NCBI GenBank assembly: GCA_963921275.4
Contig: OZ001293.3
Location: forward strand, 3,104,001-3,168,000
Length of the DNA stretch: 64,000 nt
Direction: 5' to 3'
DNA from: an uncultured Hormoscilla sp.
GTDB lineage: Bacteria; Cyanobacteriota; Cyanobacteriia; Cyanobacteriales; Desertifilaceae
Shown: positions 3,293-58,794 of the stretch, piece by piece
Numbering within the stretch: the stretch's first letter is position 1
Layout: every line of letters starts with the position of its first letter
The notes under the pieces: generated by a model
What the model was told of the DNA's origin: nothing
Seen by the model: only the letters and a program-made list of their open reading frames with translations
Database searches by the model: none
Program-made: the position numbers and the translations under genes

Positions 3293-4095
3293 CTTGACAC
3301 GAGTTAAGAAGGGGGACCGCTGGCAGGGTTTATTAGCCCTGACAACTTACAGATGATGGTGGTGAAAGCCCACCCCTCCAGGTGCAGGAGTGACAGCACC
3401 CTCCCCACGGTAGCGATGGCATCAATCCGTGAAGCGGGAAGGAAAGGCGTAATGACTGGCAGCCTAAACTGGTCATCGCTAAGCAAGTAGCTATGATGAG
3501 CATAATGCGAAGATTTGCAACGTCGTTACATGAAACCAGCGGAATAAGGCTAAACACGCTGGCCCAAAAGGGAAAGGATACAGGTCATTGGCGGATTCTG
3601 GACCGACCAATAAGCACTGACAACAAACCCGGCGTATGGAATCCATCTAAGGTTACGACCAATCATCTGTAGGAACGAAGTAAACCGGTTGCAGTACTCT
3701 CCATCACCGGTCGATAGATGGAGTAGCCACCACAGGCGTAACATCTGCTCTCCGGAAGGCAGGTCACAACCGGGAAAGATTGAGTGGAGAAGCAAACGCC
3801 CGTCTGTAATGGATGGGATAAGCTGACGCCCTCACAGTTTCGTCAATTGTAAAGTTGTAAGTAGTAGTGAACATGTCACGGAACTCAGTCGAAAGACAAG
3901 AGTATGAATGGAAGGAGGTGCCCTGGCAAGAGCTGGAGCGCCGAGTCTTTAAGCTACAAAAGCGAATTTACAGAGCGGCACAGGAAGGCAACAAGCAGAA
4001 AGTTCGCAAGCTCCAGGGACTATTGAACAGGTCATGGTCCGCGAAGATGATAGCGGTTTGTCAGGTAACGCAACAGAACCAAGGGAAAAAGACGG
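3268..4095 (+). mobile_element. Group II intron, 5' part (DI-DIV) with truncated RT/maturase
   Basis: 5' end GTGCGATTCGTT; ggtgaaagccc and other group IIB-like segments; RT N-terminus WKEVPWQELERRVFKLQKRIYRA...VTQQNQGKKT from 3867, cut by an IS1 fragment. Confidence 0.85.
3867..4095 (+). pseudogene. Group II intron reverse transcriptase N-terminal fragment (RVT_N)
   Basis: Conserved N-terminal motif; rest of ORF 3867..4367 is antisense IS1 sequence. Confidence 0.85.
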
Positions 4096-4465
4096 TCTTC
4101 CCAATCGATGACAGTTTTCTTGGAGACGTTAAGGTTCGTGCAACTGCATTGAGACCCATCCCTTCACTCCTGGCTTTGAGAACTTGGATAATCCGACTTC
4201 AGGGAGTTCGTAGACCCGCTAAGTGGCCAAGGTTTCACTGTAGTAAATGTCACACGCCTGGCAATGGTGGATGGTGCGCTACCGTTGTGTTGAGTCTCAG
4301 GGAGGGTGGTGAGGCTGTACCTCTTCACTCCCACAACAGGGACAACACTGCGAGAATAGTTCCATAACACACCTCTAATTCCGGAAAAGTCTCAGCCTCT
4401 CTATGATCATCTATAATTCATAGAGGGCAAGTCTTTGGGCTATCCTGTTCAGCGGAACCAGTGCC
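4091..4465 (-). mobile_element. IS1-family left-end fragment
   Basis: Reverse complement of 29198-~29580, including TIR GGCACTGGTTCCG. Confidence 0.85.
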
Positions 4466-4479
4466 CAAGATAGGGTCCC

Positions 4480-5197
4480 GGAAAAATCCATACCATGAAG
4501 ATATATTTGTTGACCTCTTTTTACTACTTGATTAACTTGGCTTCCACTTTTCAGGCGACGATCCGGATCGGATACCTATTATTGCATGAAAAATTTTCCG
4601 CTCGCGTACCCATTTAAGCATCTCAATACTACCAAAGCCAGTATCGGCTAAAATTCTAACCTGAAAACACTCTGTTAGCTTTTTCGGTATAGTTAAAATC
4701 AAATTTTGCGCCAAAGGGGTTTTCTCGCCCTTACCCCGATAAACTCTAAAACCCCAAGGTATACGAAAATCTCCGAGTAAAATATAAAGGACAAGAAGAT
4801 GGAGCCCCCGTTTACCATTGTAGACTCCGATAAAATTATTTAATCCTTTGAACTTCCCTACTTTCTCTAATGTTGTCAAGTCAATAACTACCTCCAAGAT
4901 CGGTTTGCGACCTTTGCGACCAGGAGGGCGTTTGGCTAATAACAGTTCAACAATCTTATTTCTTATAGCCCTAATCACTCTACGAGTTGGCCATTTGTAT
5001 ATATTTAGGAAACGGCTAATTGCACTTGGAGATTTGGTTTGACAGTGCTGGAGCAGGGGATATCCATTGGCTTGTAAAAATAGTCCAAGTAAGCTCTCAA
5101 GGCTCTCTGACTGGTAAATACTTGGCATTAATCCAAGTAGAAATTGAACTAATACCTGGGTATATTTAACTAGAATGTCCATTGATAGATTTGCCAA
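4480..5197 (-). mobile_element. IS4/IS701-like DDE transposase, 3' truncated
   Basis: VVIDLTTLEKVGKF, GLHLLVLY, ILADTGFG motifs. Confidence 0.75.
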
Positions 5198-5352
5198 TCG
5201 GTGTTAAGCGAGCAATCTTCTTTATTATACAACAATTATACAACAGTATGCTGTGTCAATTAATAGAGTATCTATGACTAATGGTCAGTTGTAAACGATG
5301 AGCGTCAAAACATGATAATTATTTTTACTCAAGGAATACCAGAGACAAGAAA

Positions 5353-5565
5353 TTATAGCGGGCCATCGGGCTTGTTGAGAATGGTGCAAGATGTCAGTGA
5401 TAACATACTTGTTTCATACATTCGCACTTCCACGGTCACCACATACTTATCACTTAATTGGCGATTAAGTGAGTTGGCAATCTCAATAATTAGCCAATGA
5501 TGAACCCCTGGCCAAAACTCTGGATCTTCAAAATAAGGATTCATTCCTGGAAATGGTGAAGGCAT
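5353..5565 (-). pseudogene. DUF4058 family N-terminal fragment
   Basis: MPSPFPGMNPYFEDPEFWPGVHHWLI signature; truncated. Confidence 0.75.
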
Positions 5566-5674
5566 ATTTTTCTCTCCTTTTCCTCTATTTTAGCATTCTC
5601 GATCGAGTTGAACCAATAGTCAATCTCCTTGATATTTCGGACTACCGAGAGCCTGTTGGGACGGTGAGTATAAG

Positions 5675-6153
5675 TCAGTGATGAATTTCCAGATCGAGGA
5701 CGTAGCGACCCAGCTGCAACTTATCCGACCATAACTCGTATTCCAACCGTAAATGTTCCGGTATGGATTTGCCCGTCAAGGTCAGCGATCGGGTAAAATT
5801 ACGCAGAGTAATCTGACCGATACCATTTAAGCATCGCTCTGCAACCAATATCGCGATCGACCATACATCCGGTTTTGCCACAGGTGGCGATAGCTAAAAT
5901 TGCCATTGCCTTGCACGGTCATAATCACCCGGTAGAGGGAGATATCCAGCCATAACATCTGGGAGGTATCCACAGCAACTACTGGTTGCCCCTTAGCTGG
6001 AGTGCTAGCGGGCACCGCAGGGAAGTTCAGCAGCAGGTGGAAGCGAGAAAGCTCCTTTTGATAAAGAGTAGCGGAGGTATCAACGGCAGACCGGACAGGT
6101 AGGTCAAGAGAAATTAGGGAAAGACTTACAGGAAAACGGTGATGGGTAAGCAT
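5675..6153 (-). pseudogene. Conserved cyanobacterial hypothetical protein split by a frameshift
   Basis: Overlapping ORFs 5827..6159 and 5675..5881 form one protein (...LWLDISLYRVIMTVQGNG...SRYWL / LRNFTRSL.L.G...P.HLRLEYELW). Confidence 0.55.
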
Positions 6154-6251
6154 ATTCAATAGAAAAGCTTTGCACTAAACACAAAAAAAGTCTTCGGATG
6201 ACTCTAGTCGCGGTAGAATCATCCTAGGTCATACCACCTCAGTCTAGCTTT

Positions 6252-7607
6252 ATGAAAGCCCCGATCGTCACCCTGAACAGTAATGTTGATGCTCAAGATT
6301 TAATCATCGCCAGACCGGCGGCGGGGCTATCCCTGCAAGGTCGCATCCAGGTTCCTGGAGATAAGTCGATTTCTCATCGGGCCTTGATGTTGGGCAGCAT
6401 CGCCCGAGGAGAAACTACTATAAGTGGCTTGCTTTTAGGAGAAGACCCCCGCAGCACGGCCAACTGTTTTCGGGCTTTGGGTGCTGAAATTTCCCCTCTG
6501 AATACAGAAAAAGTGCAAGTAGTAGGCATCGGTTTAGGAGAATGCAGTGAACCGACTGATGTCTTGGACTGCGGTAACTCTGGCACCACGATGCGCCTGA
6601 TGTTGGGCATTTTGGCATCTCATCCGGGTCGCTTTTTTACGGTGACGGGGGATAAGTCCTTGCGCGCACGCCCCATGTCCCGAGTAGTGCAGCCCCTCAG
6701 ACAAATGGGAGCGCAAGTCTGGGGGCGCAAAGAAGCAAGTCTGGCACCCCTGGCAATTCAAGGCACCCAGCTACAGCCGATTCATTATCACTCGCCCGTA
6801 GCCTCCGCTCAAGTTAAATCCTGCATTCTGCTAGCTGGTTTAATGGCAGCAGGAGAAACCACCGTCACCGAACCAGCACTCTCTCGGGACCACAGCGAAC
6901 GGATGCTGCAAGCTTTTGGCGCATCCGTCAGCATCGACCCAGAAACCAACAGTGTTACAGTAACTGGTCCGGCCCAGCTGCAAGGACAATCGGTAATAGT
7001 ACCAGGAGATATCAGTTCCGCTGCCTTCTGGTTAGTCGCAGGGGCGATCGTCCCTGGTTCGGAACTGATAATTGAAAATGTAGGCGTTAATCCCACTCGT
7101 ACAGGAGTGCTAGAAGCTTTGGAGATGATGGGTGCAGACATCACCCAAGAAAATCAGCGGGTAGTTGCTGGGGAACCCGTGGCAGATTTGCGAGTGAAGA
7201 CCGGATATCTTCAGGGTTGCTCCATCTCTGGGTCCATAATTCCGCGCTTGATTGATGAAATTCCCATTTTGGCAATAGCAGCTGTGTTTGCCAAAGGGAA
7301 AACCGCGATCAAAGATGCTGCAGAGTTGCGGGTGAAAGAGAGCGATCGCATTGCCGTCATGGCCGCACAGCTGAACCGCCTGGGGGCAAGAGTTACAGAA
7401 TTACCCGATGGTCTAGAAATCATCGGCGGCACGCCTTTAACTGGCACCGATGTCCAATCTGAATCGGATCACCGAATTGCTATGAGTCTGGCCATTGCTG
7501 CCCTGAACGCCACTGGCACTACCACCATCGGTGGTGCCGAAGCTGCTGCCATCTCCTACCCAGATTTCACAGCCACCCTACAACAGGTATCAATACCTCT
7601 CGGTTAA
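6252..7607 (+). CDS. aroA: 3-phosphoshikimate 1-carboxyvinyltransferase (EPSP synthase)
   Basis: [41 protein letters not shown] motifs. Confidence 0.98.
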
Positions 7608-7829
7608 GCAGGGAGCACCCGAGCACCTGAGTAGGGAGCAGGGAGATTGCTTCGAGGAGGTTAACTCAATTGAGCATAAGTTAATCGCGGTTGTTCCCCC
7701 CCTCACAATGACAAATGAAATCCTTAACCGAGAAGTATTGCAACAGGTGTTATGTATTTAAAGGATGTCTTGATTGCTCTTTAGCAGAAGTTAATTAGCC
7801 GTTGATATACCAGCACAAGGATAAAACCG

Positions 7830-8486
7830 ATGACAAAGATTTTGGTAATTGAAGACGATCCACCTGTACGTACCAACCTGCTCAAACTTCTGGAAGCCGA
7901 GGGGTTTGAAGTCAAGGGAGCTGAAAACGGTGAGGCTGGTGTCTCCTTGGCTATTGAGCAAGTTCTCGATTTGATTCTTTGCGACATTATGATGCCGGAA
8001 CTGGACGGACATGGCGTGCTCGAAGCCCTACGCAAAAACATAGCTACGGCGGCAATTCCGTTTATTTTTCTCACTGCTAAGGCCGAGCGATCGGATTGGC
8101 GTCAAGGAATGGAATTAGGAGCGGATGATTATCTGACTAAACCATTTACCAGAGATGAGTTGCTGGGAGCTATTGCTACGCGCCTTAAAAAACAGGAAGC
8201 AGCTATGATCAAATATCAAGCTGAGCGCAAACGAGCTGAATATCTGTCATAAAAATGCCTTGAACTCCAGGAGTTTGTTAATGCTAAAGATGAACTTTTG
8301 AATAGTCTATCCCAGGAGTTACGCCAGCCATTGTCTAATATCAATATGGCTCTGTATATACTGATCAACCAAGTGTCAGAACTGCAACAGTTTCTCACCC
8401 CTGAAAGTGTCAAGCTTCTCAGTCAATTTAAGCTTTTGAAGGGCCCAACAGGATTGGGGACTGAATTGCCCAAATCTTTGTCCTGA
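7830..8486 (+). pseudogene. Response regulator receiver + HisKA-like coiled coil, interrupted by TAA at 8250
   Basis: ILVIEDD, DIMMP, FLTAK, YLTKPF; frame continues after the stop into SQELRQPLSNINMA. Confidence 0.7.
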
Positions 8487-8729
8487 GTAGTCAGTTGCTC
8501 CCGACAGGCTCGGCGTCTCCTGAGAGCGCTAGCGCACTACCCAGGAGACACCGCCCGCCTGTCCGGGAGTTGTCAGTTGACGGTAGTTTAAGTATACCAG
8601 TGATTAAACCTTTTGTCAACCCTCTAGATCGAGAAAAACGCCGATTTTTAACCACCGGCAGCGGCTATGAGTGCGATCGCGCTCCTTTTTAGCCGCTGTA
8701 ATAATTATCTTGACAGATGCTTTAGCCTA

Positions 8730-8760
8730 TGTGATGAATATTGACTATAATTATCAATAG
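8730..8760. promoter_or_regulatory. Putative Fur-type iron box
   Basis: AT-rich imperfect palindrome ATTGACTATAATTATCAAT upstream of a 2Fe-2S protein gene. Confidence 0.4.
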
Positions 8761-8936
8761 ATCGAAGGCTCCGCGTTGGCGGTGGGCTAGATTGTCGAGG
8801 CAACCAGCCACCGACAGTACCGCAGTGTCTCCTGGGTAGTGCGACTACGATGTCCCCCGGGTAGTGCAGCGCTCCTGGAGAACATCGAGCGACCAGGAGA
8901 CACCGGATGAAGCACAGTTAGAGAATCATAAAAAAT

Positions 8937-9515
8937 ATGGATAAATTAGAAACCCGATTCAATCTGGAAAGGCAGTTTCTGGGATTTGGGCTTAAAGATG
9001 GTTACAAAATCAAATACTTGCGGTTGGCCACCGCAACAGGGGAAGACTGGATCAAAATGGACAAAAGGTTACGTGCCTCTCTCTACGGCCATTCTTTCAC
9101 CCCAGGAGACTGGCTCCAGGTTTCTGGCGAGCAAAAATTTCAGCCCAAAACCGATCAATTCAAGCTCAAGGCCGATCGAGTAGTGGCGATCGCCGTCCCT
9201 AAAGGCCCCAGGACTGCCTCCACCCCAGTCAAGGCCAAATCAGGCAAAGCCCGGGTTTTAGTCTGTCAAAAATTAGATTGTGGCAAACGTGGCAGCTTGA
9301 GAGTCTGCCAAGCCCTAGAGTCGGCCCTGTGCGCCAGCGGTCTTGCTGACCAGGTAGAGATCAAGAAAACTGGTTGCCTGAAAAACTGCAAAGCTGGTCC
9401 CAACCTTGTGGTTATGCCTGATAAAACCCGCTATAGTCGCATTGGTACTCGCGAAATCCCAGCATTAATTGAAAGACATTTTTCACAGATCGCGAATGTG
9501 CGAACCCAAAATTGA
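8937..9515 (+). CDS. OB-fold + thioredoxin-like (2Fe-2S) ferredoxin protein
   Basis: VLVCQKLDCGKRG...GCLKNCKAGPN cysteine pattern. Confidence 0.8.
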   Translation: MDKLETRFNLERQFLGFGLKDGYKIKYLRLATATGEDWIKMDKRLRASLYGHSFTPGDWLQVSGEQKFQPKTDQFKLKADRVVAIAVPKGPRTASTPVKAKSGKARVLVCQKLDCGKRGSLRVCQALESALCASGLADQVEIKKTGCLKNCKAGPNLVVMPDKTRYSRIGTREIPALIERHFSQIANVRTQN

Positions 9516-9525
9516 CAGATCCCAA

Positions 9526-9578
9526 AGTATCACTTGACTAGATGCGATCCGATTAGATCGCGCATGTCAAGTGATACT
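9526..9578. repeat. ~55-bp palindromic mini-element AGTATCACTTGAC..GTCAAGTGATACT (other copies 10845-10901, 28072-28130, 59750-59806)
   Basis: Four copies with conserved inverted arms and variable centres. Confidence 0.85.
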
Positions 9579-9656
9579 GCTGTCTAACAGAGTCACTTGA
9601 AGGGATGAGACATAAACCTGTAAAATCGGGGTACTGTAGCTGCATAGGTAATTTCT

Positions 9657-10763
9657 ATGAGTAATTCTTCCGATCCCGATCGACAGTCTTCTGGCAAAAA
9701 GCACCTCGATCTTGATGAGTGGGTGGCCATAATTGTGGCCTTATTAACTATAGGCACCATCTTCGCTTGGTCTATTAGGCCAAGGGGAGGAGGCTGGCGC
9801 TGGCCCTTCGCCTCAAAGGCTCCTCTGTCCCCATCAGCAACTCTGCCAGTTCCCATCTCCCCAGTAGACCCTCTAGTAACTCCTGGGGATATAGGAGACT
9901 CTACTCTAACTCCTGTATCCCCAGAAGACTCTGGGACAACTGAATCGACACTGGATGATGAGAAACCAGCATCATCAGTTTCCCCAGTTACGAAGATACC
10001 AGTACTGAGTCAAACTTCACCAGAAATAGGCTTACTACCAACCAAACGGCCCCAAACACCGGCGCCAACTGACTCAATAACCGATTCCACGGAAACACCG
10101 GCACCGACTGATTCAACAACTGAGTCGCCAGAAACACCGGCACCGACTGATTCAGATCGCGATCGAGGGGTGAAATTCAAAGATGTTCCAGATGACTTTT
10201 GGGCATTTCCTTTTATTACAGCTTTAGTTGAGCGTGACCTTTTTGATAGGGCGGCAGATACTGATATTTTCCAACCTAATGCACCGATGACCCGCGCTGA
10301 ATATGCCGTCGCCCTGCGAAAAGCCTTTAAACAAAATCCGACTCAGAATCAGTTGAATTTTCAGGATGTTCCAGGGGATTACCCAGTAGGTGAGCCCATT
10401 AAGAGAAGCACCGAAACGGGATTTTTAAGAGGCTATCCTGGACAAATATTCCGACCCAACCAACCCATTCCGCGAGTGCAGGTGATTGTCTCCCTAGCCA
10501 ATGGATTAGGATTGAAGGCCCCGTCTAATCCCAATCAAATCCTCCAGCGCTACCAGGATGCCAGTCGCCTACCGGCATATTCGGTCTCGGCGGTGGCAGC
10601 TGCAACCAAAGCGGGTCTTGTGGTTAACTATCCTAATCCCTCACGGCTTAATCCCAACCAAGTCGCTACTCGGGCTGATGTTGCTAGCTTGATTCATCGA
10701 GCCTTAGTTATCCAAGGAAAGGTGCCAGAAATTCCTTCCCAGTATATTGTTCAACCTGATTGA
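9657..10763 (+). CDS. S-layer homology (SLH) domain membrane protein
   Basis: N-terminal TM, Pro/Thr linker with TPAPTDS repeats, three SLH repeats (FKDVPDDFWA, GYP...FRPNQPIPR, LNPNQVATRAD). Confidence 0.9.
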   Translation: MSNSSDPDRQSSGKKHLDLDEWVAIIVALLTIGTIFAWSIRPRGGGWRWPFASKAPLSPSATLPVPISPVDPLVTPGDIGDSTLTPVSPEDSGTTESTLDDEKPASSVSPVTKIPVLSQTSPEIGLLPTKRPQTPAPTDSITDSTETPAPTDSTTESPETPAPTDSDRDRGVKFKDVPDDFWAFPFITALVERDLFDRAADTDIFQPNAPMTRAEYAVALRKAFKQNPTQNQLNFQDVPGDYPVGEPIKRSTETGFLRGYPGQIFRPNQPIPRVQVIVSLANGLGLKAPSNPNQILQRYQDASRLPAYSVSAVAAATKAGLVVNYPNPSRLNPNQVATRADVASLIHRALVIQGKVPEIPSQYIVQPD

Positions 10764-15479: not shown

Positions 15480-15689
15480 TGGTCTGGTGTCCTTTGGGGA
15501 TGCTACATAAATCTTAACATGCTTTTTCTCTATTGTAGGAGGTTGCCATATTTTATATATTTGACATTATTTGACTATTCTATTATGTTTAGTGGGCGAT
15601 CGCCCCAATAATAACACACATATCTAGGAATTTGTCAAGGTTCGCCTGGGGAAAGGCAAAGAAGGTGGGCCTTGCCCATCCTACATTTA

Positions 15690-18600
15690 CTATTCTTTTA
15701 CAACTTCTAGTAACCACTCTTTGATCTGGCTTCTTTCTTCTGAAGATGCTCCCGAAATATTCAACAGCTTCGGAAGCAGCGATCGCCTCTGCTCGAAATT
15801 TTTCTTAATTTGAGGATAGGATGGTAATTTGCCATCCACTGCCAGATGAGTTTCTGGCAAGATTCTGACTCGATCTCATATTTCTTGACTGAGAGTCACT
15901 CCAGTAGTATGCCATGCAACACACTGACTCAAACACGAGAGCAAGCATATAGTTTCTCTAGGATCTGTTCTGCGATCGTCTAGCTTATTGAGAACCAGTT
16001 GAGCAGCTTGCTCAACATCTGTTTGCTTAGCTTGCCATCTTTCTGGTTGACCTAGACTTATTAGCCTTCCTAAAGCCCACGCTGCTTTCATTCGTTGTCC
16101 TAAATGTTGACCATTTGCGATCGCATCATATAGAAAATTCAAGGTTGTTGGAGAAGGCTGTCCGCATTTTCCCAGAGAATTGATAAATGATTGGGATCTT
16201 TTTTGATGTTTGTCGGAATTAAATGCTTTGATTATCTCTAAATCAAAACCATGCCAAAACAATTTACCCGGCGTTTGTGCCAGTGTTTCATATAAAGCCT
16301 GTTTTGATTTATTCATTGTTGATAAGTCACTCGTAAGCTTACTCTTAATCCACTGCTGAAACCTTTTTTCCAAATTATTCGCGTCTGTCGAGTCAATTGA
16401 CTGAAAAATTGTGCTTAAAGCCATCGCCGCTAGTAAAGCTTTAGTCTCGCTCAATGAATTAACCATACCACTCATATCTAGCCATCTGAGCAGTTCGCCG
16501 ATAATAGAAAGACGGTTTTTGGCTATAGCCGTTGTTTGTTCAAGTTTTCTGCGTTCTTGATGCACCTCCTTCTTGATAGTATTACTTGTATCACTATTGA
16601 AGCTGTTTGCAAGTGCTTCCCACTGATTAAAATTTACTCGGACTATTTCAGTAATGGGCTTCCCTTTTCTGAGTCTGGGAATAGAGAAAATAGATATTTT
16701 TTTAATCGCCTGACGCGAAACAATAGATGGAGGCTTATCTAAACCCCCAGGAGATGCCACCTCTAGCTTAAATCGCGCCTCACTACTTTCTTTGGGCGTG
16801 AGTGTCAGCAAAAGCCGTTCGTCAAAAGTGTATTCTACTTCAAGATTGAGAGTACAATTGGGTGGTAGGTTGGCGGCATTAATCTCCTCAATAGCAACTT
16901 GACGTAGCCTTTGCAGTGTAGTATTATGGTTGGGCTTCGTTCCCATTCCCACCCAAACCTTAAAGCTCAAATAGCCACTGCTCGTATCGGGTAACTTTAA
17001 TCCTGATAATACAGTTCTGTAGGGGTATTTTTGCCCTTGGGCTACCAGCAAACGTAGGGATCTTTTACCTTCGAGTACCTCAAGATAAATGTTGGTCGGA
17101 TTTACCCTTTGAGTTGACTTGAGTACACCTGCTGCATAGAGCGCTGCTCCCCTGGCTACTGCCCGATCGGGGTTATGACCATCTATGATGGGCACATCTC
17201 CAAATAAGCTTTGCAGGCGATCGCGTACCAGTGGGAAATAAGTCATGCCACCATTTAAGAGCACTGCATCGATTTTCGGGATTTCACCGCTGCTTTGCTT
17301 GGCCTTGAGGATAACTTCCAGCACCGGCACGATAAAGGTGTTAAGTCGATCCGTAAATGGAGGTTCATCGAAAGCCTTTTGCGGATCCAAGGCCGTTCCA
17401 GAGGCTAACGTTAGCTCTTCACAGAGTAGAGGTGAGATAATTTCTGCCATCTGAGATTTACTGATGTAGTATCTGATGGGAAATTGTCCCTCTAACAATA
17501 TTGGTTGAAAGAGGTACTTGAAATTCTCCTTATCCCCGGTACTACCATATTCAGCGCCCCACATCTTCTTAAACTTCTCAGAAAAAATTAGCAGTTCGTA
17601 GGCCAGTTTTTGACCATCGGCTTCAGAGAGATTTTTACATGCAGACCAATTATCTAATATATAATTGGCAATTAGCCGATCTATAGTATCTCCTCCTACC
17701 CGGGTACGGGAGCAAATTGCTAAATCATCAATGATAAAATAGTTAGCCGATTGATCCCACAGTACATTGTGCAGGGTGACATCTAAGGTGCCGCCACCCA
17801 AGTCATAGACCAGGATATTAGATGGCTGCATCACATCGAACAAAGGTGTCAGTTCGCCCTTCTGCACGCGATGCAAGTAATCATATAAAGCCGCTTGAGG
17901 TTCTGGGAGTAATACAACTTCCTCCTCTTGCCATCCCGCTAGCACTGCTGCTTTGCGAGTCGCTTCAATGGCATCTGATTCATAGGAAGCAGGATGCGTT
18001 ATCACTGCACCCTGCACTGAACCATACTTCTGGATTAGCTTATCTCGACAGAAAGCTAGTACCTTAGCAGCCGCTTCTTCAGGAAAAATTGTTCCCTCCG
18101 TCAGATCGTAAGCAAACTGCTTGCCATTGGTCGATCGGCCCATGTCATGTTTCCAGGCCAGAATAGTCTGGTCGCGAAAAGCATAAGCCTGAGCTTTAAC
18201 ATATCCCCCTACCTCTGCTTCAGTTTGTCCCTTGAAGCGGACCGCAGAAGGAATGATATCATTGGTAACTAAACCCTGTTCTTCCCTAATCGAAACACCA
18301 ACTGCTGCCGCAGTCCATTGCTTCGTCATCAGATTGACATTCGCCAGAGCCATGACTGTATTCGTAGTTCCCAAGTCAATCCCTACATAGGTAGGTCGCA
18401 TGACTTCTTTGAGAGGTTCTACATAATCAGCCACCTCCCGCAATCTATTACCGATCCGATCGCCAATGACTAGGGTTTCGATCCCTTTGCGTTTTAACCT
18501 CCCAAACAAACTAGCATAACCATTGTCATTACTGACAACAGCAATCATTGAGACCTGATAATCTGCATTACCAGTAATTTCATCAGCCGTGCGCTCGATC

Positions 18601-18827
18601 AGTCGATCGACCTCTTGAGACACGGGTTTGAGTCCAGGAGTCAACTCAAAGCGATAGCCAAACTCGCGAAAAGCTCCACCATAAGCGGTAAGTACCGACG
18701 GCGTATTAGAGAAAGCCCGGCGAACTACAAGTTGTCCATGTTTCTCATGATGAGTTTGACAAATTCTTTCTATATCAGCCAGTTTCGGCTTGATATTATC
18801 CAAATCAAGTAAGACAGCAATACTCAT
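15690..18827 (-). CDS. NYN (PIN-fold) RNase - Hsp70-like ATPase - helical-repeat fusion; TGA at 15876 followed by 61 more open in-frame codons
   Basis: NYN: LLDLDNI, EVD, VSNDNGY, KGIETLVIG; Hsp70: GIDLGTTN, THPASY, EPQAA, YDLGGGTLD, GGDTID, LNGG, NPDRAVARGAA; HEAT-like SLGKCG, AAWALGRL. Confidence 0.85.
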
Positions 18828-18852
18828 AATTTTCCTCCCTTCTAGTTTCCGC

Positions 18853-20700
18853 TTATTCCGTAACTTCCTTCACCCGAGCTGGCGTAATGACTTCTTCACC
18901 CACACGCCATCCCGGATGAATACAACGTACTACTTTTTTATCTTCTGAGTTAGCAAAAGCGGAGCCCTCAACATAAGCATATGCGGACAACTGCTCGCTC
19001 TGCAATTCAAAAACTTGATCCTCCTGGGCTGGATATCGTGTCACATTAAGTGAATTTAATGCTTGCAACAAATTTTCTAAAGCAATCAAAATGCCCAGAG
19101 AGTCGCTGGGAGACAAAGATAACTCCGAGTTTGACTCTGACATTTTATTTAACCGTTGGTACAGGAGCATAATTTGATCCAAAACTGGTTGATCCTGTTT
19201 CTGAAGAGTTGTGACCAATTGACAAACCGCTGATTGGAGTGCTTGAGAACGAATTTCTGACAGCTCTTTTTTCAATTTTTCATTTTCCTGCTGCAAAAGT
19301 TCCACTTGATTTGTGAGGTTAGCTTCAGTCTCTCCTAACTCCCAAACTAAATTCTGAGCGGCTTCCTCCTTAATTGCCGTCGGCGTGATGTTAAATTATT
19401 TTTGCAGTTGCAATCCTAACTCACCGAGAGACCAAGAAGCCCCCCACTTTAATAATGTTTTATAGCCATGAGATGAGTTAAGCAGATCGCGTACCTTTTG
19501 ATCTACTACTGAGGGAAGTTCCGCTAAAAATAAAAATGTTCTCTCTTGGGAATTTTTGAAATAGTCAATTACCTCACAAAACTCACTCAGCTTAGTCAAA
19601 TCCCGGTTTTCCGAATCCGCAGAATCCGCAAAAGCATATTCTGCTAGTTCGACAAACTTACTCAGATTTGCCTGAAGTTGCTGTCTAACTGTCTGGGGAG
19701 ACTCGCTATACTTTCTTGACAGGTAAAAAAAGAATTTTTCTGCCGTATCGTACTCAACTGAATCAAATTTTCGGTTAAGTATTTCCTTCCAGCTATCCCC
19801 TTCTTTCACAACTCTTACACATTTATGGTGAATAGGAGCAATAGCTTCCTGTCTTTCTTTATACTTCTGACTTTGCGGCACAAATCCCCTGTAGGAATAA
19901 TTGAGAAAATTCACTAATCTTCTCCAAGGAGATGATGCTAACTCCTTCTTCAAGAGTTCCACTTGCCGGTTGGCTTTCGTCTCTCCTAAATCCTGAACTT
20001 TCTTTATCTTGATATCCTTATTCACTTCCTTCTTTTCCTGCTTAACTTCCTTACGCGCGATCCCCAATCTCTCTTCCAGTTGCCATCCGAATTCATTCAG
20101 AAAGGGAGAAGCTCCCCACTGTAATAATGCTTGATATCCTGCCGATGAGTTAAGCATCTCCCGGTCCTTTTGCTCCAGAACGGAGGGAAGTTCTGACAAA
20201 AACCAATATGTTTTCTCTCGCGACTTTTTGAAATAGTCTATTACCTCACCCAACTCACTCAGCTTGGTCAAATCCCGGTTTTCCGAATCTGCCAAAGCAT
20301 ATTCTGCTAGTTCCACAAACTGACTCAGTTTTGCTTGCATTTGCTCTCTAACTTCCTGGGGAGACTCGCTGCTTGACAGGTCATCAAAGAATTTTTTGGC
20401 CGCCTCGTACTCAACTGAATCAAAATTTTGGTTAAGTATTTCCTCCCAGCTATCCCCTTCCTTCACAACTCTTACACATTTATGGTGAATAGGAGCAATA
20501 GCTTCCTGTCTTTCTTGATCTTTCTGGCTTTTCGGCATAATTTTTCTGTAGAAATCATTGAGACAATTCACTAATCTTCCCCAAGGGGATGCTGCCAACT
20601 CTTCTGGGGAAAATCCTGGTTGAACTGGTTTGTTTTTCTCTGGACGTGCCAATGCCTTATTTTCTGATGTCTTTTTCGGTTTTGGTTTTTCTGTCTTCAT
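18853..20700 (-). pseudogene. Tandem-repeat-domain / coiled-coil / GrpE-like protein split by one in-frame TAA at 19396
   Basis: ORFs 19396..20700 and 18853..19305 are in the same frame with no other stop between; C-terminal VVRCIHPGWRVGEEVITPARV resembles the GrpE beta-domain; two ~170-aa repeats (ELAASPWGRLVN / ELASSPWRRLVN). Confidence 0.7.
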
Positions 20701-20745
20701 TGCTATTGCTTATACGGATTGCGTTGTGCTGCGCGGATGTGCCGA

Positions 20746-20826
20746 TGACTCTCGGAAGGTCATCTGTGACTCCGGGAGGGTCAGATCGTGACTCTCGGAA
20801 GGTCATCTGTGACTCCGGGAGGGTCA
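20746..20826. promoter_or_regulatory. Array of four TGAC-N9-GTCA palindromes (two 43-bp tandem units)
   Basis: Sites at 20746, 20767, 20789, 20810 (21/22/21-bp spacing), ~45 bp upstream of the operon ATG at 20700. Confidence 0.6.
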
Positions 20827-20889
20827 TTTAACAATAGTCCGGACAGTTTTTGGGTAAACGGCTGAAACTGGCATTCTACCGTTGGTGAG

Positions 20890-21111
20890 TGAGAGCGTCA
20901 AATAATTCATGACGAATCTCTCTTAAAAGTAGGAATAGTTTAGCTTTTCGTATCCGTTTGGCCACTTGCCGCTCCGAAGATGAAAGTTCAATTGGGGGAT
21001 TCCAGGGGACTGGACGCATATGTCTACTCCTGTTTACATTTTTACAGGTTTTTATATTATACACACATTTTCGGTTTTTTGTCAACCCCCTCTACTGGAC
21101 CGACGCTCTAG
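20890..21111 (-). mobile_element. IS1182-like left-end remnant
   Basis: TIR CTAGAGCGTCGGTCCAGTAGA and MRPVPWNPPIELS start, homologous to 61075-61307. Confidence 0.8.
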
Positions 21112-21303
21112 CATTTCAATTATCGTCCGGGCTGAGTTGAGGGCGTTTCTGCCGGCTATCTGAGATTTTACCGACTCGGACAGGGTCTTGCCGTAGCGAT
21201 GGGCGATCGCCTGATAGACTTGAGCGTAAATAGGTTGTTCGGTATCTAGCAGCAGACCATCTAGATCGTAAATGATGTGAGTAATTTTTTTGAAGTCAGG
21301 CAT
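21108..21303 (-). pseudogene. HAD-family hydrolase truncated by IS
   Basis: IYDLDGLLLDTE motif I; ORF runs into the IS TIR (LERRSSR). Confidence 0.8.
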
Positions 21304-21570
21304 GGGCAGATGTCAGGTAAATCAGGTTTCTGGTAATTGTAAGCTAAAAGACCAGCCCTGTTGCTTGAAGCCCAAAGATTCGTAAACAGCATGGGCCCTC
21401 GCGCGTTTTAGACTAGAAGCAAAAGTCCGCCTGCTGCAAGCATATTCACTATCAATGCATCAGGGGCGACATGAGCCTTCAAACCCTTGCTATATAAGGC
21501 TTTGAGACGAATAAACCCGGGAACTCCTCTGTTATCGGGTTTCGTAATCTTTTGTGGAGATGCTTCCAAC

Positions 21571-28271: not shown

Positions 28272-29150
28272 CTAGGGCGTGTCATCAATTAAGCCATATT
28301 ACAGCTGCCGCTAGGTAGATGGCACCCAAGAAATTGCGAGCCGTTTTATCGTAGCGTGTCGCCAGAGCCCTGTATTGCTTGAGTTTTTGGAATAGATTTT
28401 CAATTAGATGCCGCCACTTGTACATTTCTTCATCGTATTCTCTGTGTTCTGTGCGGTTACTTTTTGGAGGAATGACAGCCATCCAATCCGCCTCTTTCAG
28501 GCGCTCGAGCACACGTTGTTCCGCATCATAGGCTTTATCTGCAAGCAGCGCGCCAATCTCACCGATTTTATCCAATAGCACGTCAGCGCCTTTCCCGTCG
28601 TGGGCTTGGCCAGGGGTAAGATGAAATCCTGTGGGATTGCCTTGGGCAATCGCAAGTGGCATGAATCTTTGTCGATAGTCCCCCTTTACTACGGCCTATG
28701 GCTTGGGTTTCGCACGTATCTGAGGGTGTTTTTTTTTGCACCCGCACGCTCGTTGATGGGCACGCAGGATGGTGGCATCAATCGCGGCGTATTCGTTATC
28801 GGCGTCTGAGGCCAAGACATCGAATACCTGCTTCCAAACTCCCTTTTCAGACCAACGGGTATGGCGGGTATGAACAACCCGAAAATCCCCAAAACACTCC
28901 GGTAAATCCCGCCAGGGAATGCCAGCACGATATCGATATAACACGGCAGAACACGAATAATCTATTGTTCTTGGCTGTAGCGCCTGGGTCACCCTCTTTA
29001 CCAGGTAAAAGGTGTTCGATCCGTTCCCACTGGTCGTCTCGCAAGCCATAGCGTCTCATATCATGCCCTCTTGATTGTTATTGCTGGATAAGGACTCCAT
29101 ACCGTATCCATCTACTTCTGTCAAGCAATTTGATTGATGACACACCCTAG
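28272..29150 (-). mobile_element. IS5-family element (IS427-type, DUF4096 + DDE), frameshifted
   Basis: TIRs with CTAG ends; [59 protein letters not shown]. Confidence 0.9.
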
Positions 29151-32694: not shown

Positions 32695-35693
32695 TCAAAT
32701 CAGCCCCAATTCTGCGATCCCAGGGGAATTGGGAAAACTAGCTGTACTGGCACTATTGCTTTGGTCAGGAACTCCAGCAACACCCAACTCCTGCATCATC
32801 GATGAAACTTGGGTACGCACCAAGCTATTGGGGTCATTTTTCATCATTGGCAACAAATCCACCAGCGAGCGAGGGCTAGCAACTTTCAGATAGGCCAACA
32901 CCGCTTCCCGCACAAAACCCGTGGGATGACGCAAACAGGTCAAGGTCTGCTCGGCTGTCAAGCTCCATCGGGCCATCCTGGCGCAATGAAAACAGCAAGC
33001 CAAAGGCCAATCAGGCAAGAAATGACGTAATTCTAACAGATGGCGCAGCCGATCGCTCGGACCTTGGGTTGATAGTATACTAGGGTGCTCAGACCCTCCA
33101 GCTTTTCCTGGTCGCTATATCGATCCAGTACCGTCAGCATCGCGTTTTTGCTCTTGATATCCAGAGTATTGTCCAATATTTCCAACCCCCGCGCCCTATT
33201 CATCATGGAAGCGGACTGCAAATTAAACGCAGTTGCTTGTACGCTGTTGATGGGGTACAGAAACTTCATCAGCAAGAAACACCGGTCGATCGCATCTCCT
33301 TGCAAATCCTTCAGGGCCTGACGCAAGAAATCCGCTTCTCGACCCTGCACCAACTCCTCTGTCATGTCCACCATCGCCCCATAGATCTGCCCCAAAAACA
33401 TCAATTCCTGGTCAATTAACAGTTCTATGCCCGCTCGACCCACCTGCTCTAAAACTCCCTCAATGCCCCGATCTGAGGGCATTTTCAGCAATATGCGTCC
33501 AATATTGCTGCGTGTCGTGCCCCAAGAGGTCATCAGATTATTCGCTAATACCTGCAAAGCTTCGGGCGTATCGATCCTACCAATCCCAGTCCAGGCATAC
33601 TGCCGCACCAGATCCGGCTTGTGGATGTCCAGGGCTAATTCCAGCAGTAATGGTATCGCTTCATTTTCTAAACGCACCAGGGAACGTAATGCCGTTTCCC
33701 TGGTGGATTGGTAAGTCAGGCCCCGCAACACAGAAGGATAATATTCCTCTAAATGGGTTGCCGCGATCGCCTCTAGCAAAGCGCAGCGCACCCGCAAAGA
33801 TTCATCGGCCAACAGGTTGGGGATATAAAGCCGCAGGGCCTGCATATATACTGCTTCTCCCAAGGCCCGACAACCCATCACTCTTTCCCGCTCTTGGGGC
33901 GAAGTTACCAAGAGTCGCAGAGTATTGGTTGCCTCTGCTTTCTGACGAGGGGAGCCACGGCGCAGCATTAACGAAGCTGCCGTCGCTCGCACGATCGGGT
34001 CTACTTCTGGCTGCAAGTACGGTCGCAGTTGCCGAATATCTGGCTCTGGTTCCGTCAGCCATATGTAGCGCAGGGCTACCGCCAACACTTCCGGTTGCAG
34101 CGCTTGACTCGTCAGCATCCGCACTTTATTTAAGTCCGCCTCCTTGGGATGCTCTAGCAGCACTTCCAGACTCTGACGCTGCAATGCTGGTGACATCGAA
34201 GGCAGCAAAGGTACCAGCACCTCATTCAGATTTTCCGGGTCCAGCTGACTGAGCAATTCTATACAGGAACTTTTATCTTCATCTGCTCCTGGCTGCTGCA
34301 AAGTTTCCGCTACTTTCCGTTTCAGCGCTCGTAAGTCTACATCCGATACTCCCAGCTGTCCTTTCTCGGCACTCGTTACTAACAATTTCACGTATCCCGA
34401 TCGCAGGGCCCTGATCGCCACTAACCACCCCAAAGCTAGGATTACTGCCTCTAGTAGAAATATTTTGTCTTGTACTCCCCGTTCTACTTGAGCCCACTCA
34501 CACACCCAAATTGTTGCTAACATCGCCAGCCCCGTCAATCCTGTAGAGATTGGTTCCGCGATGCCACGGATTGCCTGGGCCCTGTTGCGTCCACTCTCAG
34601 GTATTGGTTGGAACAGCGCTGGTCCCGTCCCCGCCACTAGGGTGTAGCGAAACAGATCGTCGATGAATTTCATCGCGATCGCGCCCCAGTACAGGTCTAC
34701 TATGCCTCCCATGAATATTATCCCGCCCAGCCCGATCGAACCTGGCAGCAGAGATGCTGCCACGAATACCCCCAACTTCTCGATCGCCCTTGATGATATG
34801 AACCATTGTACTGCTAGCTCTGCTATTCCCAATATCCCGCTGAACAGTCCTAAAAAGCCTACTATCTGTTCCCTGCTCAACTTGATTTCTAGTTGTCCCA
34901 AGAACTGAAACTCTACTACCTGTAATATTGCTTGGGCGAATACGAATAATAAAATTAATGGTATGACATACTGTCCGATCGGACCTGTTAGTCGCGGCGT
35001 CGTAAATTCTTGATTTTCATCTGACCTGGACCCCTGCCGTGAGTCAGGAAAGAATTGCTGGTAGCTGATAGTGATATAAAACAATATCCCTGCTCCCAGG
35101 GATATCATCACGCTCGACACTAAAACTACGTTGTTTAGCTTAAATACTACTAGGAGTAGCGGCAGCGAGAAACCACTTATCACATCTGCCATCAGTATCC
35201 CGCTGCTTACCAGCGGGTAGGTGCGCTTAATTTCCCTGATATTGAACAGTTGATTTGCCGTGATTGACGTATTCAGTTCGTTCAGCACGTGACATGCTTC
35301 TACCCACAGCCGCAGCAGAAATACCGTTAAGCCGGCCACGTATATTATATCTAACCCGAAACGCAGCCCAAATAACGGGATTGCCATCAACAGGGCGATC
35401 GCTACTATTAACCACCGCAGGGGCAGCCATTTTTCCAGCCAGGAGTACAAAAAACCCAATCCCGAACCCATCACCGCACTGGCAATATATATCCAGGGCA
35501 ATGATTCGGCTCCATACCTATCCAGGAACAATGCTGCCGTACTTGCTTCCGACCAAGTCAGTCCTACACAGGTTGCTGTGTAGAACGCGAGCATCAGCAA
35601 CGTCCGTCCACTATCATCTGGTCGGAGATTTAGTAGTTGCAATAATCCCCTAGCTGATTTGCTCAATCCCGAACCCTGATGCTTTATTTCCAT
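32695..35693 (-). pseudogene. MFS/Npt1-like transporter + HEAT repeats, frameshifted near 33060
   Basis: Multi-TM N-terminus (FNIREIKRTYPL), HEAT repeats; C-terminus continues in ORF 32695..33018; typical partner of the cNMP gene. Confidence 0.75.
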
Positions 35694-36144
35694 AATCTCC
35701 TTCTCCTGTAACTTGACACCGATTATCAAATCTTTAATTATGACTGTCAAGTTACACTACTCGCTAATTGTTAATTGCTAATTGCTAATTGCTTTATTTT
35801 CCTGGACACTTAACACTTAACAATCAACAATTATCCATCTGTGTCCCCCCCTCGTTCCCACGGCGAAGCCTGGGAACGTGCGAGTAGCGCGAGGTAAGCT
35901 GTCGCGCATCGCTCACTGCATATTCGAGCTGCCGATAAAATCTTGGGAACCCTCTACCCATAAGCGGCGATCGCCACCCAGCCTGCCCCATTTTGGACTA
36001 TGCAATTTAAATGCATCACAGCTTATCTCCTGGGTAGTGATCCTACGATGTCCCCGCTTTTGTGCGGCTAGCGCTCCCCGGGGACATCGATCTCCCAGGA
36101 GATACCTCGCCCCGGGAGACACAGCATCCGGGGACACAGCCCTG

Positions 36145-43181: not shown

Positions 43182-44193
43182 ACTCAAGTTGCGACCTATA
43201 AAAATTGGATACAAAAAGCTATGATAAAGAGAATTATTTTCAACTCTAATCCCTTAGATGTAACAGCATGAATTGACTTGGGAAACAAATTGGTGATTCG
43301 ACTAAAACAGGTTTCAACTTGTTTTCTTGTTACTTTTTGTATATATTCAAAACAAGAAGATTCTTTTCTTTTTGAGTTCTTTTTTCGCAAAGGTTTTAAC
43401 ATTATACTTGACGACTCTTTTAGTAAATCCTCTAATTGATAATCATTATAAGCTTTATCTCCATAAACTATTGAATTTGATGGTAAGTCAAAGCCAAAAG
43501 ATTGCAAAACTTTAACATCATTATAACTACCAGGATCTAGATAAAATTCTATTGGCTTTCCATTTTTGTTTACCAACATATGAACTCTTAATCCATAAAA
43601 ATAACGTTTTTTACTGGCAATATACCCTCGATATTCTTCCTTGTTATAAATTTGGCATCTATCAATCCTAATATTATCACATACTGGCACCGGGAAACTA
43701 TCAAGAATATATTCTTGACCCGGATTGAGCTCTTTAAATGTTTGAGCTATAACTTGGAAGAAAAACATCCAAATTGGTTCCTCAATATTGTGTAATCGAC
43801 GATTGAACCTACTTTTACTTAACAGATTTTTTATATACTTGTGTTGGACCATAAATTGACAAGAGCGATCATGGTGTCCTCCGAAAAAATATGCAGCAAC
43901 TAATCCGACTGTCATCACTTCGGCATTGTTCATTTTTACTTGTGGATCTTCTTTTATATTTAACGCTTTTAGTAGCTCGTCACAAAGAACAAAAATTGTT
44001 GTAATCATATCTTCCATCATCTACATCCCCCAGCAATTAACTATTATTTTAGTACATTATAACCTATAAACAGCCAACCCGCCGTCTAGCACAAAAAAAA
44101 TATAATTTTGTATCAAAAGCTACGAAATATCCCAAATATCTGTAAAGTCTAAGTGGGTAATTCATATTTTTTTTAATAGGTCGCAACTTAGGT
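43182..44193 (-). mobile_element. IS982-family element, apparently intact (transposase 43196..44020)
   Basis: TIR ACYYAAGTTGCGACCTA, 7-bp TSD TATATTA (43175-43181, 44194-44200); LDSFP, YGDKAY, RKQVET. Confidence 0.93.
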
Positions 44194-49730: not shown

Positions 49731-50079
49731 CCTACATCCTACTCAGCGATGAGATCGGGGAAGTTAGCAGATATATCTACTTTAGCATAAGTTGATTTTT
49801 TGAGCAACTGCTCGATCGGGATCGAACGGCCTAGGCCCATCACAGGGAACGATACTATGCATAATTGTACTCCACTGAGGTACTCAACCCAGCCAAACTC
49901 GCTGGAAACAGTGACCATTGACCGGCGAGCGGTCACTTCTGACCGGTGACCAGTGATATCTAGTCCGGCAGCGAAGCCTGTCAGTATTAGGGAGTTGGGT
50001 AGATCGGGAAGAGAGGCGATCGGGTGGCGCGATTTCATATTGATTTAACATTGCTACCTGTCATCTAATCTATCACGAT

Positions 50080-50425: not shown

Positions 50426-50698
50426 TACCTCGGTTTATTTACCTGATAATATGATAGCATGAAATATCGGAGTTTTATGATTATAGAAAAAGGGGCGATC
50501 GCACTGGAGGAATATCCTTACAGATCGCCTGGTAAGTAGGGTAGTGGCAAAAAAAGAGTCACAAATATTAAAATCAATCCTATCGTTTCCGAGAGTGCCC
50601 ACCCATGTCGTGCGCGGGTGCGACACGACAGGGTGGGCATCTCTGGAAACGACCCTCCAATTGCTAATGCCCTATTTTAAAACTGGAGTTAAGGTGAA

Positions 50699-51148: not shown

Positions 51149-51159
51149 AGGAGGTATAA

Positions 51160-53708: not shown

Positions 53709-53710
53709 AC

Positions 53711-58790: not shown

Positions 58791-58794
58791 GGGA

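Follow-up and report, generated by a model that had tools for sequence, protein, structure and literature searches.

What would a bacterium do with an Hsp70 chaperone that carries a nuclease domain at its N-terminus and is encoded next to a GrpE-type protein of its own? This question is raised by two genes in a stretch of 64,000 nucleotides from an uncultured Hormoscilla sp. (contig OZ001293.3, positions 3,104,001 to 3,168,000), referred to here at its full length as the window. Gene A, upstream, encodes a long GrpE-type partner, and gene B, downstream, encodes a fusion of a NYN (PIN-like) nuclease domain, an Hsp70 and a HEAT-like helical tail. Judged from its sequence and from those of its homologues, the locus carries a conserved, mainly cyanobacterial module of two genes, in a copy that was inactivated recently. 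For this module, the best reading is that of a client-gated RNase, controlled by the Hsp70 cycle and served by a dedicated exchange factor, which would likely act as a conflict- or stress-type RNA shut-off; an even chance is given to this reading.

Domain make-up of the fusion and its partner

Both frames lie on the minus strand, gene A upstream of gene B, with 25 nt between the end of the former and the start of the latter. Their parts are the following, pLDDT being the predicted local distance difference test score of the structure models:

15690..18827, minus strand: gene B, full frame of 1045 codons and stop with one nonsense codon inside; NYN-Hsp70-helical tail fusion
18420..18821, minus strand: NYN (PIN-like) nuclease domain, residues 3-136 (Pfam PF01936)
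17133..18407, minus strand: Hsp70 nucleotide-binding (ATPase) domain, residues 141-565 (Pfam PF00012)
16728..17132, minus strand: Hsp70 substrate-binding beta domain by AlphaFold2 model and Foldseek, residues 566-700
16593..16727, minus strand: variable linker, partly disordered (pLDDT < 50 at model residues 135-150), residues 701-745
15693..16592, minus strand: helical-repeat (HEAT-like) tail, residues 746-1045, with 12 helices at high pLDDT; its last 61 codons lie past the nonsense codon
15876..15878, minus strand: in-frame TGA of gene B, where the closest homologue (P0002) has Cys
18853..20700, minus strand: gene A, full frame of 615 codons and stop with one nonsense codon inside; long GrpE-type partner
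20098..20610, minus strand: copy 1 of the orphan all-alpha N-domain (71% identity with copy 2)
19435..19947, minus strand: copy 2 of the orphan all-alpha N-domain (the majority of the family is single-copy)
19396..19398, minus strand: in-frame TAA of gene A, where 12/12 aligned homologues have Glu, in LQ(K/R/Q)EF
18856..19395, minus strand: GrpE-homologous region by Pfam and fold, with one long and two short helices before a C-terminal beta domain

An original prediction made from this DNA had described gene B as a frame of ~1,040 codons with an N-terminal NYN domain, an Hsp70 nucleotide-binding domain with all the main motifs, a divergent beta-domain and a HEAT-like tail. The frame indeed reaches 1045 codons once it is read through its TGA, and Pfam places the NYN domain above the gathering cut-off (PF01936, E 1.3e-6, 29.4 bits vs 24.2), with the motifs DLDN...EVD...SND present as foreseen. 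The same domain was detected by Pfam in 27/27 members of the fusion family at E <= 0.01 (best 3.6e-12), and a phmmer search of it against PDB sequences gave no meaningful match (best E 3.6). In the alignment of these 27 members, from which the conservation figures given here are taken, the NYN residues D8, D10, N11, D74, S99, N100, D101 and N102 are invariant (27/27), and position 72 is E or D throughout (27/27).

The Hsp70 nucleotide-binding domain, which matches PF00012 from residue 148 onwards (E 8.4e-32), agrees with its earlier description as well. A profile of the 27 family members matches the ATPase domains of BiP, Ssb and DnaK in the PDB at E ~1e-33, and the motifs GIDLGTT, K226, E309, DLGGGTLD and NGG.T are invariant in all 27, as are the residues D151, K226, E309, D342, G344-346, T347 and D349, each of which presumably has its counterpart under DnaK residue numbers. 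When the gene B product was compared with the NCBIfam equivalogs of DnaK and HscA, only the ATPase part was matched, at 109.8 bits vs a cut-off of 648 (NF001413); 11/11 of the listed models were far below their cut-offs, which for the DnaK models range from 648 to 1019 bits. Since these scores are so far below the cut-offs and confined to the ATPase part, the gene B product is, by sequence comparison, not a DnaK or HscA ortholog.

Residues 560-983 of gene B were modelled with AlphaFold2 using the family alignment as input (model m88c69d9a95cc, pLDDT 85.6), and the model consists of a beta domain and 12 helices joined by a short disordered linker. Foldseek returned 90 PDB matches for it at E <= 1e-3, and among the 40 matches listed all are Hsp70-family chains or Hsp70-containing complexes at probability 1.0, most of them isolated substrate-binding domains of DnaK, BiP, HscA and human Hsp70. 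Because the listed matches are all Hsp70 at this probability, the modelled beta domain is considered to be a true Hsp70 substrate-binding domain; the earlier note had thus been right on its presence, and the word divergent gives way to a real substrate-binding fold. The Foldseek alignments, of 250-290 columns, run from the beta domain into the helices, but with a root-mean-square deviation > 20 A, and in the model the helical solenoid is read as standing in place of the usual Hsp70 lid. As to the HEAT-like tail, its helical nature is upheld by the 12 predicted helices, but HEAT_2 is called by Pfam in just 1/27 family members, and in 2/10 of the nearest relatives outside the family, so that the label HEAT-like draws on the model and on these relatives. 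An Atlas search with the tail gave weak leads (0.88-0.91), with HEAT families on a minority of the cluster members.

Mean pairwise identity amounts to 0.567 for the NYN domain, 0.560 for the ATPase domain, 0.504 for the beta domain, 0.363 for the tail and 0.280 for the linker. Because the first two values are so close, the nuclease domain is held as tightly as the ATPase.

The two N-domain copies of gene A, each of ~170 aa, share 122/171 identical residues (71%, BLASTP E 8e-86), and are therefore similar rather than near-identical as had been stated. An identical 14-nt hairpin-like string is found twice in gene A on the plus strand (19835-19848 and 20492-20505, 657 nt apart), because the N-domain is internally duplicated. 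The GrpE-like C-terminus of the original prediction, on the other hand, is well founded: the region past the TAA (18856-19395) matches GrpE PF01025 at E 1.6e-8 (34.8 bits vs a cut-off of 25.8), and the fold of a homologue model agrees. The protein modelled was P0128, a homologue with one N-domain copy and 80% identity to the gene A product (pLDDT 85.2), and the model displays an N-domain of ~10 helices (residues 32-206, mostly pLDDT >= 87 per 10-residue block) followed by a GrpE part with helices at 211-271 (~60 residues), 277-294 and 302-321 and then strands at 324-383. Its top 10 Foldseek matches in the PDB are all GrpE chains (probability 0.99-1.00), the highest target-normalised template modelling (TM) score being 0.70 with 4ani_B. 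The NCBIfam GrpE equivalogs remain far below their cut-offs for gene A. A local hidden Markov model (HMM), built from the C-terminal 185 residues of 134 partner-profile matches, recognises the window region at E 8e-58 and also picks canonical grpE open reading frames (ORFs) of 177-221 aa just upstream of dnaK in 16/81 loci; these control loci are mostly ordinary Hsp70/dnaK loci with 25-33% identity to the fusion.

For the N-domain itself, the sole above-cut-off Pfam match was FAM195 (26.1 bits vs 25, E 1.1e-5), which lies on one of the two copies and was taken as chance. A profile search of PDB sequences gave nothing below E 0.5, and Foldseek gave nothing credible outside the GrpE part among PDB folds (14-3-3 proteins at probability < 0.2) and a best TM of 0.27 among viral models; against the Atlas the score was 0.76, under the noise level. 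On sequence and model, gene A would therefore encode the module's own nucleotide-exchange factor, with an orphan domain set at the N-terminal end of the long helix and apparently duplicated in this lineage.

Family, pairing and the in-frame stops

A homology search with gene B returned 57 clusters (90% identity) at E <= 1e-191, the next match lying at 2e-50, so that the family is sharply bounded and, with about 57 clusters, patchily distributed. An organism is named for 13 fusion clusters: 12 of these come from cyanobacteria and one from a Calditrichia metagenome-assembled genome (MAG); the cyanobacterial hosts are Nostocales such as Dolichospermum, Nodularia, Sphaerospermopsis, Umezakia and Scytonema, together with Cyanobacterium and Geminocystis. 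The database names of these proteins are "Hsp70 family protein", "NYN domain-containing protein" and "nucleotide exchange factor GrpE". One partner homologue, P0140 of Cyanobacterium aponinum, bears the source name "OmpH family outer membrane protein", probably a mis-annotation due to its coiled coil.

The partner search found 22 proteins. An exhaustive partner profile search yielded 30 representatives at E <= 1e-30; 22 of them have 347-488 aa and cover nearly the whole profile, and the others are fragments. Most partners have a single N-domain and about 360-430 aa; two copies are present only in the closest relatives of the window protein. For 6/22 partner matches, the longest contig is identical in size to that of a fusion cluster (341399, 50426, 34554, 15581, 49771 and the window's 6879066 nt), and for the 15,581-nt contig, partner and fusion are both named from the same Cyanobacterium MAG. 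In the five pairs other than that of the window, identity to the window sequence decreases in parallel for the fusion (89/62/62/53/48%) and for the GrpE part of the partner (95/58/56/49/48%), and faster for the partner N-domain (71/38/45/31/29%). The shared contigs in five other cases, the common MAG name and the co-divergence of the GrpE part with the fusion all speak for the dedicated pair that had been predicted. The tail and the partner N-domain appear free to vary, and as the fastest-evolving portions of the two proteins they are candidate specificity parts. Their fast evolution is also the only pointer to the original idea that the repeat or HEAT domains would sense a ligand such as a phage protein and that nucleotide exchange by GrpE would switch the RNase.

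A complex prediction with an intact pair (P0006 residues 1-570 and P0130 residues 45-408, with alignments) gave ipSAE values of 0.26, 0.34 and 0.27 vs a mark of 0.32, in runs made without controls, and speaks neither for nor against binding. Physical binding of fusion and partner is presumed. Searches of plasmids with tblastn gave no family member for the fusion, with 0/107 matching records covering >= 80% of the query, and no match for the partner. A genome-contig search seeded with the generic Hsp70 motifs VYDLGGGTL and GIDLGTTN gave 80 ordinary Hsp70/dnaK loci and no family member.

Each gene of the window pair is interrupted once. Gene B begins with an ATG at 18827 and runs for 983 codons to the TGA at 15876-15878, after which the same frame continues for 61 codons to a stop at 15690-15692; gene A begins with an ATG at 20700 and runs for 434 codons to the TAA at 19396-19398, followed by 180 codons in the same frame to a stop at 18853-18855. 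Homologues read sense codons at both places. P0002, of 1040 aa and 89% identical to the gene B product, has Cys at the TGA position, in a column that varies across the family (C/R/S/Y/V), and the 61 residues past the TGA align with the conserved family C-terminus. The sequence past the TAA of gene A is up to 95% identical to its homologues, and intact homologues with both N-domains exist (P0121, 601 aa, and P0122, 615 aa). Furthermore, 48/57 fusion clusters are 1025-1074 aa long, which fits the read-through length of 1045 aa and not 983 aa. Since homologues read sense codons and the downstream sequence is conserved, the frames past both stops are, on this comparison, real coding sequence and not chance. 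The GAA>TAA change would sever the GrpE part from gene A and the TGY>TGA change would remove the last 62 conserved residues of gene B, and on these predicted products the module in this genome is dead or crippled.

At columns where the other 26 aligned sequences agree, the window copy differs once (G372C), compared with 0-9 such differences in intact homologues. Because the copy is otherwise unworn, its inactivation is, by this measure, recent; a recently inactivated copy had been foreseen from the stops, and both the replaced sense codons and the single unique change bear this out.

Two other explanations of the stops were weighed. Read-through, by TGA as selenocysteine, by programmed read-through or by another genetic code, would leave the genes intact, and the alignment of the TGA with the Cys of the nearest homologue is the classic selenoprotein pattern, while both frames are open and conserved past their stops. 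Yet the two stop codons are different, TGA and TAA, the variable Cys column does not suggest a catalytic Cys, and the other long genes of the window are open under table 11, for which reasons selenocysteine and another genetic code were rejected; for TAA, no recoding is known under the bacterial code. Read-through of any kind is accordingly given almost no credence. Sequencing or assembly errors would also leave the real genes intact, and it is true that there is a single assembly, the 983-aa and 434-aa products in the database both coming from one 6.88-Mb contig. Such errors are held to be highly improbable, if a little less so, as both changes are in-frame substitutions, unlike typical assembly indels, and many other genes in the window are truncated. 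The different codons and the preserved frames together make another code, selenocysteine and an indel-type assembly error unlikely.

Relation to known Hsp70-linked systems

The module was compared with several published systems. The closest published Hsp70-like/HEAT unit is CnuD of Type III CoCoNuT, which has Hsp70-like ATPase and substrate-binding domains and HEAT-like repeats and occurs with HEPN RNases, the Type III-C systems coming mainly from Cyanobacteriota (PMC11090510, PMC10542128). The likeness to gene B, by architecture only, lies in the order of the parts, HEAT-like repeats coming after an Hsp70-like unit of ATPase and substrate-binding domains, and in the tie to RNases (HEPN in CoCoNuT, NYN here) with a predicted action on RNA. 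CnuD, however, is partnered by a McrB-type GTPase (CnuB) and by McrC-N/DUF2357 (CnuC), and among the ORFs scanned across the window no Pfam domain of the McrB-type GTPase or DUF2357 was found. For CnuD, a degenerate Walker A-like motif and a weak ATPase are described (PMC11090510), whereas the catalytic motifs of gene B are invariant in its family; gene B, moreover, has its RNase on the same chain as the Hsp70, and the module brings an exchange factor of its own. The main text of the CoCoNuT paper mentions neither GrpE nor NYN (PMC11090510). As no McrB or DUF2357 is near, the ATPase motifs are intact and GrpE and NYN are absent from that main text, the module is not a CoCoNuT, on a comparison made with the published description of CnuD.

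A second theme, HSP70 with GrpE in GAP1-N2 GTPase-centred conflict systems, was reported by Kaur et al. 2020 (PMC7159879). As in the window, a non-housekeeping Hsp70 is encoded there with its own GrpE, in a predicted conflict system. Unlike the module, these systems are described as centred on a GTPase, accompanied by FNIII/DnaJ or TPR proteins and found for the most part in actinobacteria and firmicutes, and they have neither a NYN fusion nor a HEAT tail (PMC7159879). No GTPase or FNIII match was obtained among the neighbours of the module, and because no GTPase is present it does not belong to this theme.

The pair resembles a canonical grpE-dnaK operon in that an exchange factor lies directly upstream of an Hsp70, the folds are homologous and the ATPase motifs are kept. 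It differs by the extra NYN domain of gene B, by the solenoid that probably takes the position of the lid, by the absence of an adjacent dnaJ and by a partner that is about twice as long as canonical GrpE (about 390-615 vs 177-221 aa) and carries the orphan N-domain. The nearest sequence relatives outside the family are Hsp70-HEAT fusions of Bacillota and Fusobacteriota (P0058-P0067, 734-945 aa, E 2e-50 to 2e-35), which share the Hsp70 and a helical C-terminal extension of 300-400 aa but are without NYN, their Hsp70 beginning at ~residue 6.

The best plasmid match to the window ATPase domain (E 4e-37) is an Hsp70 of the Priestia megaterium plasmid pNCT2_2. This Hsp70 (583 aa) belongs to a set of four genes that share one orientation at 3642-10499 (locus L081). 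Its gene is preceded by those of a beta-CASP/RMMBL RNase-type metallo-hydrolase (630 aa) and a hypothetical protein (476 aa) and followed by that of a HEAT-repeat protein (576 aa). By analogy, this set looks like a split counterpart of the fusion with a different RNase, and not like a family member. Its 476-aa protein aligned with GrpE in hhalign at E 0.011 and 3.7% probability, and the local HMM gave no match. A HAD-domain gene is located 2 genes downstream of the Hsp70-HEAT pair of this plasmid; its likeness to a HAD remnant beside gene A in the window is probably a coincidence. Among eukaryotic chaperone-linked RNases, Ire1 is a kinase-RNase. Sacsin, described as a chaperone-linked RNase, combines Hsp90-like, DnaJ and HEPN domains (PMC3710099), and with both proteins the likeness is one of concept, the sensing of protein folding being joined to an RNase; the domains are unrelated and the comparison is an analogy only.

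Beyond the family, the partner profile reaches about 120 further clusters that match in the GrpE part only and are mostly 330-400 aa long, with N-terminal halves that have no Pfam domain. Pfam GrpE was matched by 14/38 of the profile-search proteins at E <= 1e-3 and by 12/90 at E <= 1e-4. In P0187 (771 aa) a metallo-beta-lactamase domain is fused to GrpE, and in P0178 (292 aa) an RRM_1 domain is fused to a GrpE-like region; a tblastn search of plasmids with P0187 gave matches via the metallo-beta-lactamase part only. Long GrpE proteins may, on this hint, form a larger set that has yet to be described. Among the full texts searched, which leave out supplements and most subscription journals, no description of the NYN-Hsp70 fusion or of its long GrpE partner was found.

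Possible function and genomic setting

In the mechanism proposed, the NYN domain sits on the N-terminus of the ATPase domain, and an Hsp70 whose motifs are intact and which has an exchange factor dedicated to it is expected to alternate between its ATP and ADP states. A client would be captured by the beta domain and the tail, possibly helped or selected by the partner N-domain, the private GrpE would reset the ATP/ADP cycle, and nucleotide state together with client binding would decide when or where the NYN domain cuts RNA. Both the RNase activity and its gating by the ATPase cycle are predictions. Structures of DnaK bound to GrpE show the GrpE helix with its N-terminal end toward the linker and the substrate-binding domain; if this geometry holds here, the partner N-domain would be close to the beta domain and the tail, and possibly to the NYN domain.

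For such a device, the most likely role would be a conflict- or stress-type RNA shut-off, for instance an abortive-infection-like defence or a stress-triggered RNA decay. The joining of a nuclease to a regulatory NTPase with variable repeat parts points toward a conflict or defence role, while the patchy distribution, the lower GC content (43% over 16-20 kb vs ~50% at 12-14 and 22-24 kb of the window) and the truncated HAD gene directly upstream point toward a conflict/defence or accessory role.

Several findings weigh against the client-gated RNase as read here. Residue 103 of the NYN domain, which we take to be the second Asp of the usual S-x-D-x-D motif, is Asp in 17/27 family members and Gly in 10/27, including the window copy, where this Gly had already been noticed, and full nuclease activity is therefore uncertain. 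Neither gene product matched any PADLOC-DB 2.0 family (0 families), the PADLOC matches of the neighbouring ABC ATPase being generic ATPase similarity. The neighbours within ~6 kb are of a housekeeping kind (ABC transporter, HAD remnant, sulfatase and its maturase), and no defence-type gene of the window lies closer than 29 kb, the nearest being PIN, the Eco29kI restriction-modification pair and ResIII, so that the abortive-infection or defence role originally proposed finds no backing in PADLOC or in the neighbourhood. No J-domain protein is encoded beside the pair among the window ORFs scanned. Conservation within the family is high (mean column identity 54%) and its spread through Nostocales is ortholog-like, a pattern which would fit a physiological function as well as defence, and the adjacency of the two genes in other genomes is read from shared contigs. 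Finally, the locus region is rich in gene fragments and insertion sequence (IS) elements, ORFs of at least 100 aa covering 68.5% of the window, and the two stops may reflect general decay and be uninformative on the cost or role of the module. The same ORF coverage suggests a pseudogene-rich genome.

The Gly at residue 103 in 10/27 members also speaks for another reading, according to which the NYN domain would be a non-catalytic RNA- or ribosome-binding handle of a specialised chaperone remodelling ribonucleoprotein, as in a ribosome-associated Hsp70. A relative of the partner GrpE region is fused to an RRM domain (P0178), and for Hsp70-like/HEAT proteins the CoCoNuT authors argue in favour of a possible binding to RNA or ribosomes (PMC10542128, PMC11090510). 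This is nevertheless thought quite unlikely: no variation is seen at five other acidic or polar positions of the active site (27/27), NYN is the most conserved part of the protein, and even the Gly-103 variants keep at least four acidic active-site residues, as many as PIN-like activity is said to require (PMC5499597). By this count the NYN domain would retain what such activity demands, if its metal-binding residues are those suggested by the motif pattern.

A second rival keeps the nuclease and turns the module into a physiological device coupling folding stress to RNA turnover, in which the Hsp70 would sense unfolded or nascent chains and the NYN domain would trim mRNA or rRNA, either to reduce the load of protein or to process particular transcripts. 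It would then be no immune system but an accessory function, in stress or regulation, of certain cyanobacteria. The complete and conserved Hsp70 with its genuine substrate-binding beta domain and exchange factor, the housekeeping neighbours without a defence-model match, and the high conservation and spread through Nostocales are all in its favour, and PF01936 includes LabA, a circadian-output regulator of Synechococcus, while bacterial NYN genes are linked by neighbourhood to tRNA/rRNA processing (PMC5499597). On the other side stand the patchy occurrence in 57 clusters only, the GC content of the module below that of its flanks, the fast evolution of the tail and the partner N-domain, and the fact that CnuD, the closest published unit, is found in predicted restriction systems (PMC11090510). 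The physiological device is considered possible but rather doubtful. Within the general mechanism of a client-gated RNase, a conflict-type role is placed only slightly ahead of a physiological one.

The remaining features of the window, outside the pair itself, are given below:

20876-21312, minus strand: remnant HAD-family hydrolase gene, adjoining gene A on its upstream side
48250-59424: conflict-type genes, loosely clustered and in several cases fragmentary, >= 29 kb from the module
within 48250-59424: ResIII helicase, 439 aa
50699-51148: PIN toxin-like ORF
51932-52333: DUF433 ORF
54567-56393: Eco29kI restriction endonuclease and C5 DNA methylase
56928-57383: CHAT fragment
58795-59424: AAA_16 fragment
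3867-4367: reverse-transcriptase N-terminal fragment (RVT_N), mobile-element debris
28285-29049: IS with DUF4096 and DDE ORFs, mobile-element debris
43196-44020: DDE transposase in a stretch of 37.6% GC, mobile-element debris
60394-61038: DUF772 transposase fragment, mobile-element debris
33033-35750, minus strand: 905-aa protein with HEAT_2 repeats and a weak TLC ATP/ADP-transporter match
39885-42275, plus strand: 796-aa ORF without Pfam match, in strong positive GC skew (38-42 kb)
15666..15678, minus strand: terminator-like hairpin, 12 nt past the final stop of the gene B read-through frame (consensus match only)
20873..20901, minus strand: promoter-like site, ~170 nt upstream of gene A (consensus match only)
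21056-21085: second promoter-like site, upstream of gene A, with 12/12 consensus positions

Of the HAD gene, the N-terminal ~76 aa with the DxDG motif are left (HAD_2 positions 1-50 of 178), followed by an unrelated 71-aa frame. The expression signals carry little weight, with 7 terminator-like sites found vs 6.3 expected in shuffles and 10 promoter-like sites found vs 10.5 expected.

A broader proposal, speculative and improbable as it stands, is that the pair founds a class of "Hsp70-gated RNA effectors" in which a working Hsp70 would recognise a protein cue (unfolded, nascent or phage-made) through its peptide-binding domain and HEAT-like tail and convert it directly into RNA cleavage by NYN, with the long private GrpE setting the timing and its fast-evolving N-domain serving as specificity adaptor, and perhaps a wider set of Hsp70-HEAT and long GrpE proteins with swapped RNA-directed parts. 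P0187, P0178, the Priestia locus L081 and the about 120 long GrpE-like clusters may be leads to such a set.

The window copy is a pseudogene pair, and its value is that of a pointer to the family. No earlier description or test was found of an Hsp70 that combines a ribonuclease in the same chain with an exchange factor dedicated to it, though Hsp70 is the best-studied chaperone. If the ATPase cycle gates the RNase, protein recognition would be coupled to RNA destruction in a new way, and if the Hsp70-gated reading is true the module would be a functional bacterial counterpart of chaperone-controlled RNases such as Ire1. It would then bear on phage defence and on the function of the Hsp70-like/HEAT units in CoCoNuT systems, and GrpE-type proteins would gain a role beyond housekeeping. 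It would also bear on the stress physiology of bloom-forming cyanobacteria, as Dolichospermum, Nodularia, Sphaerospermopsis and Umezakia carry intact copies of the module.

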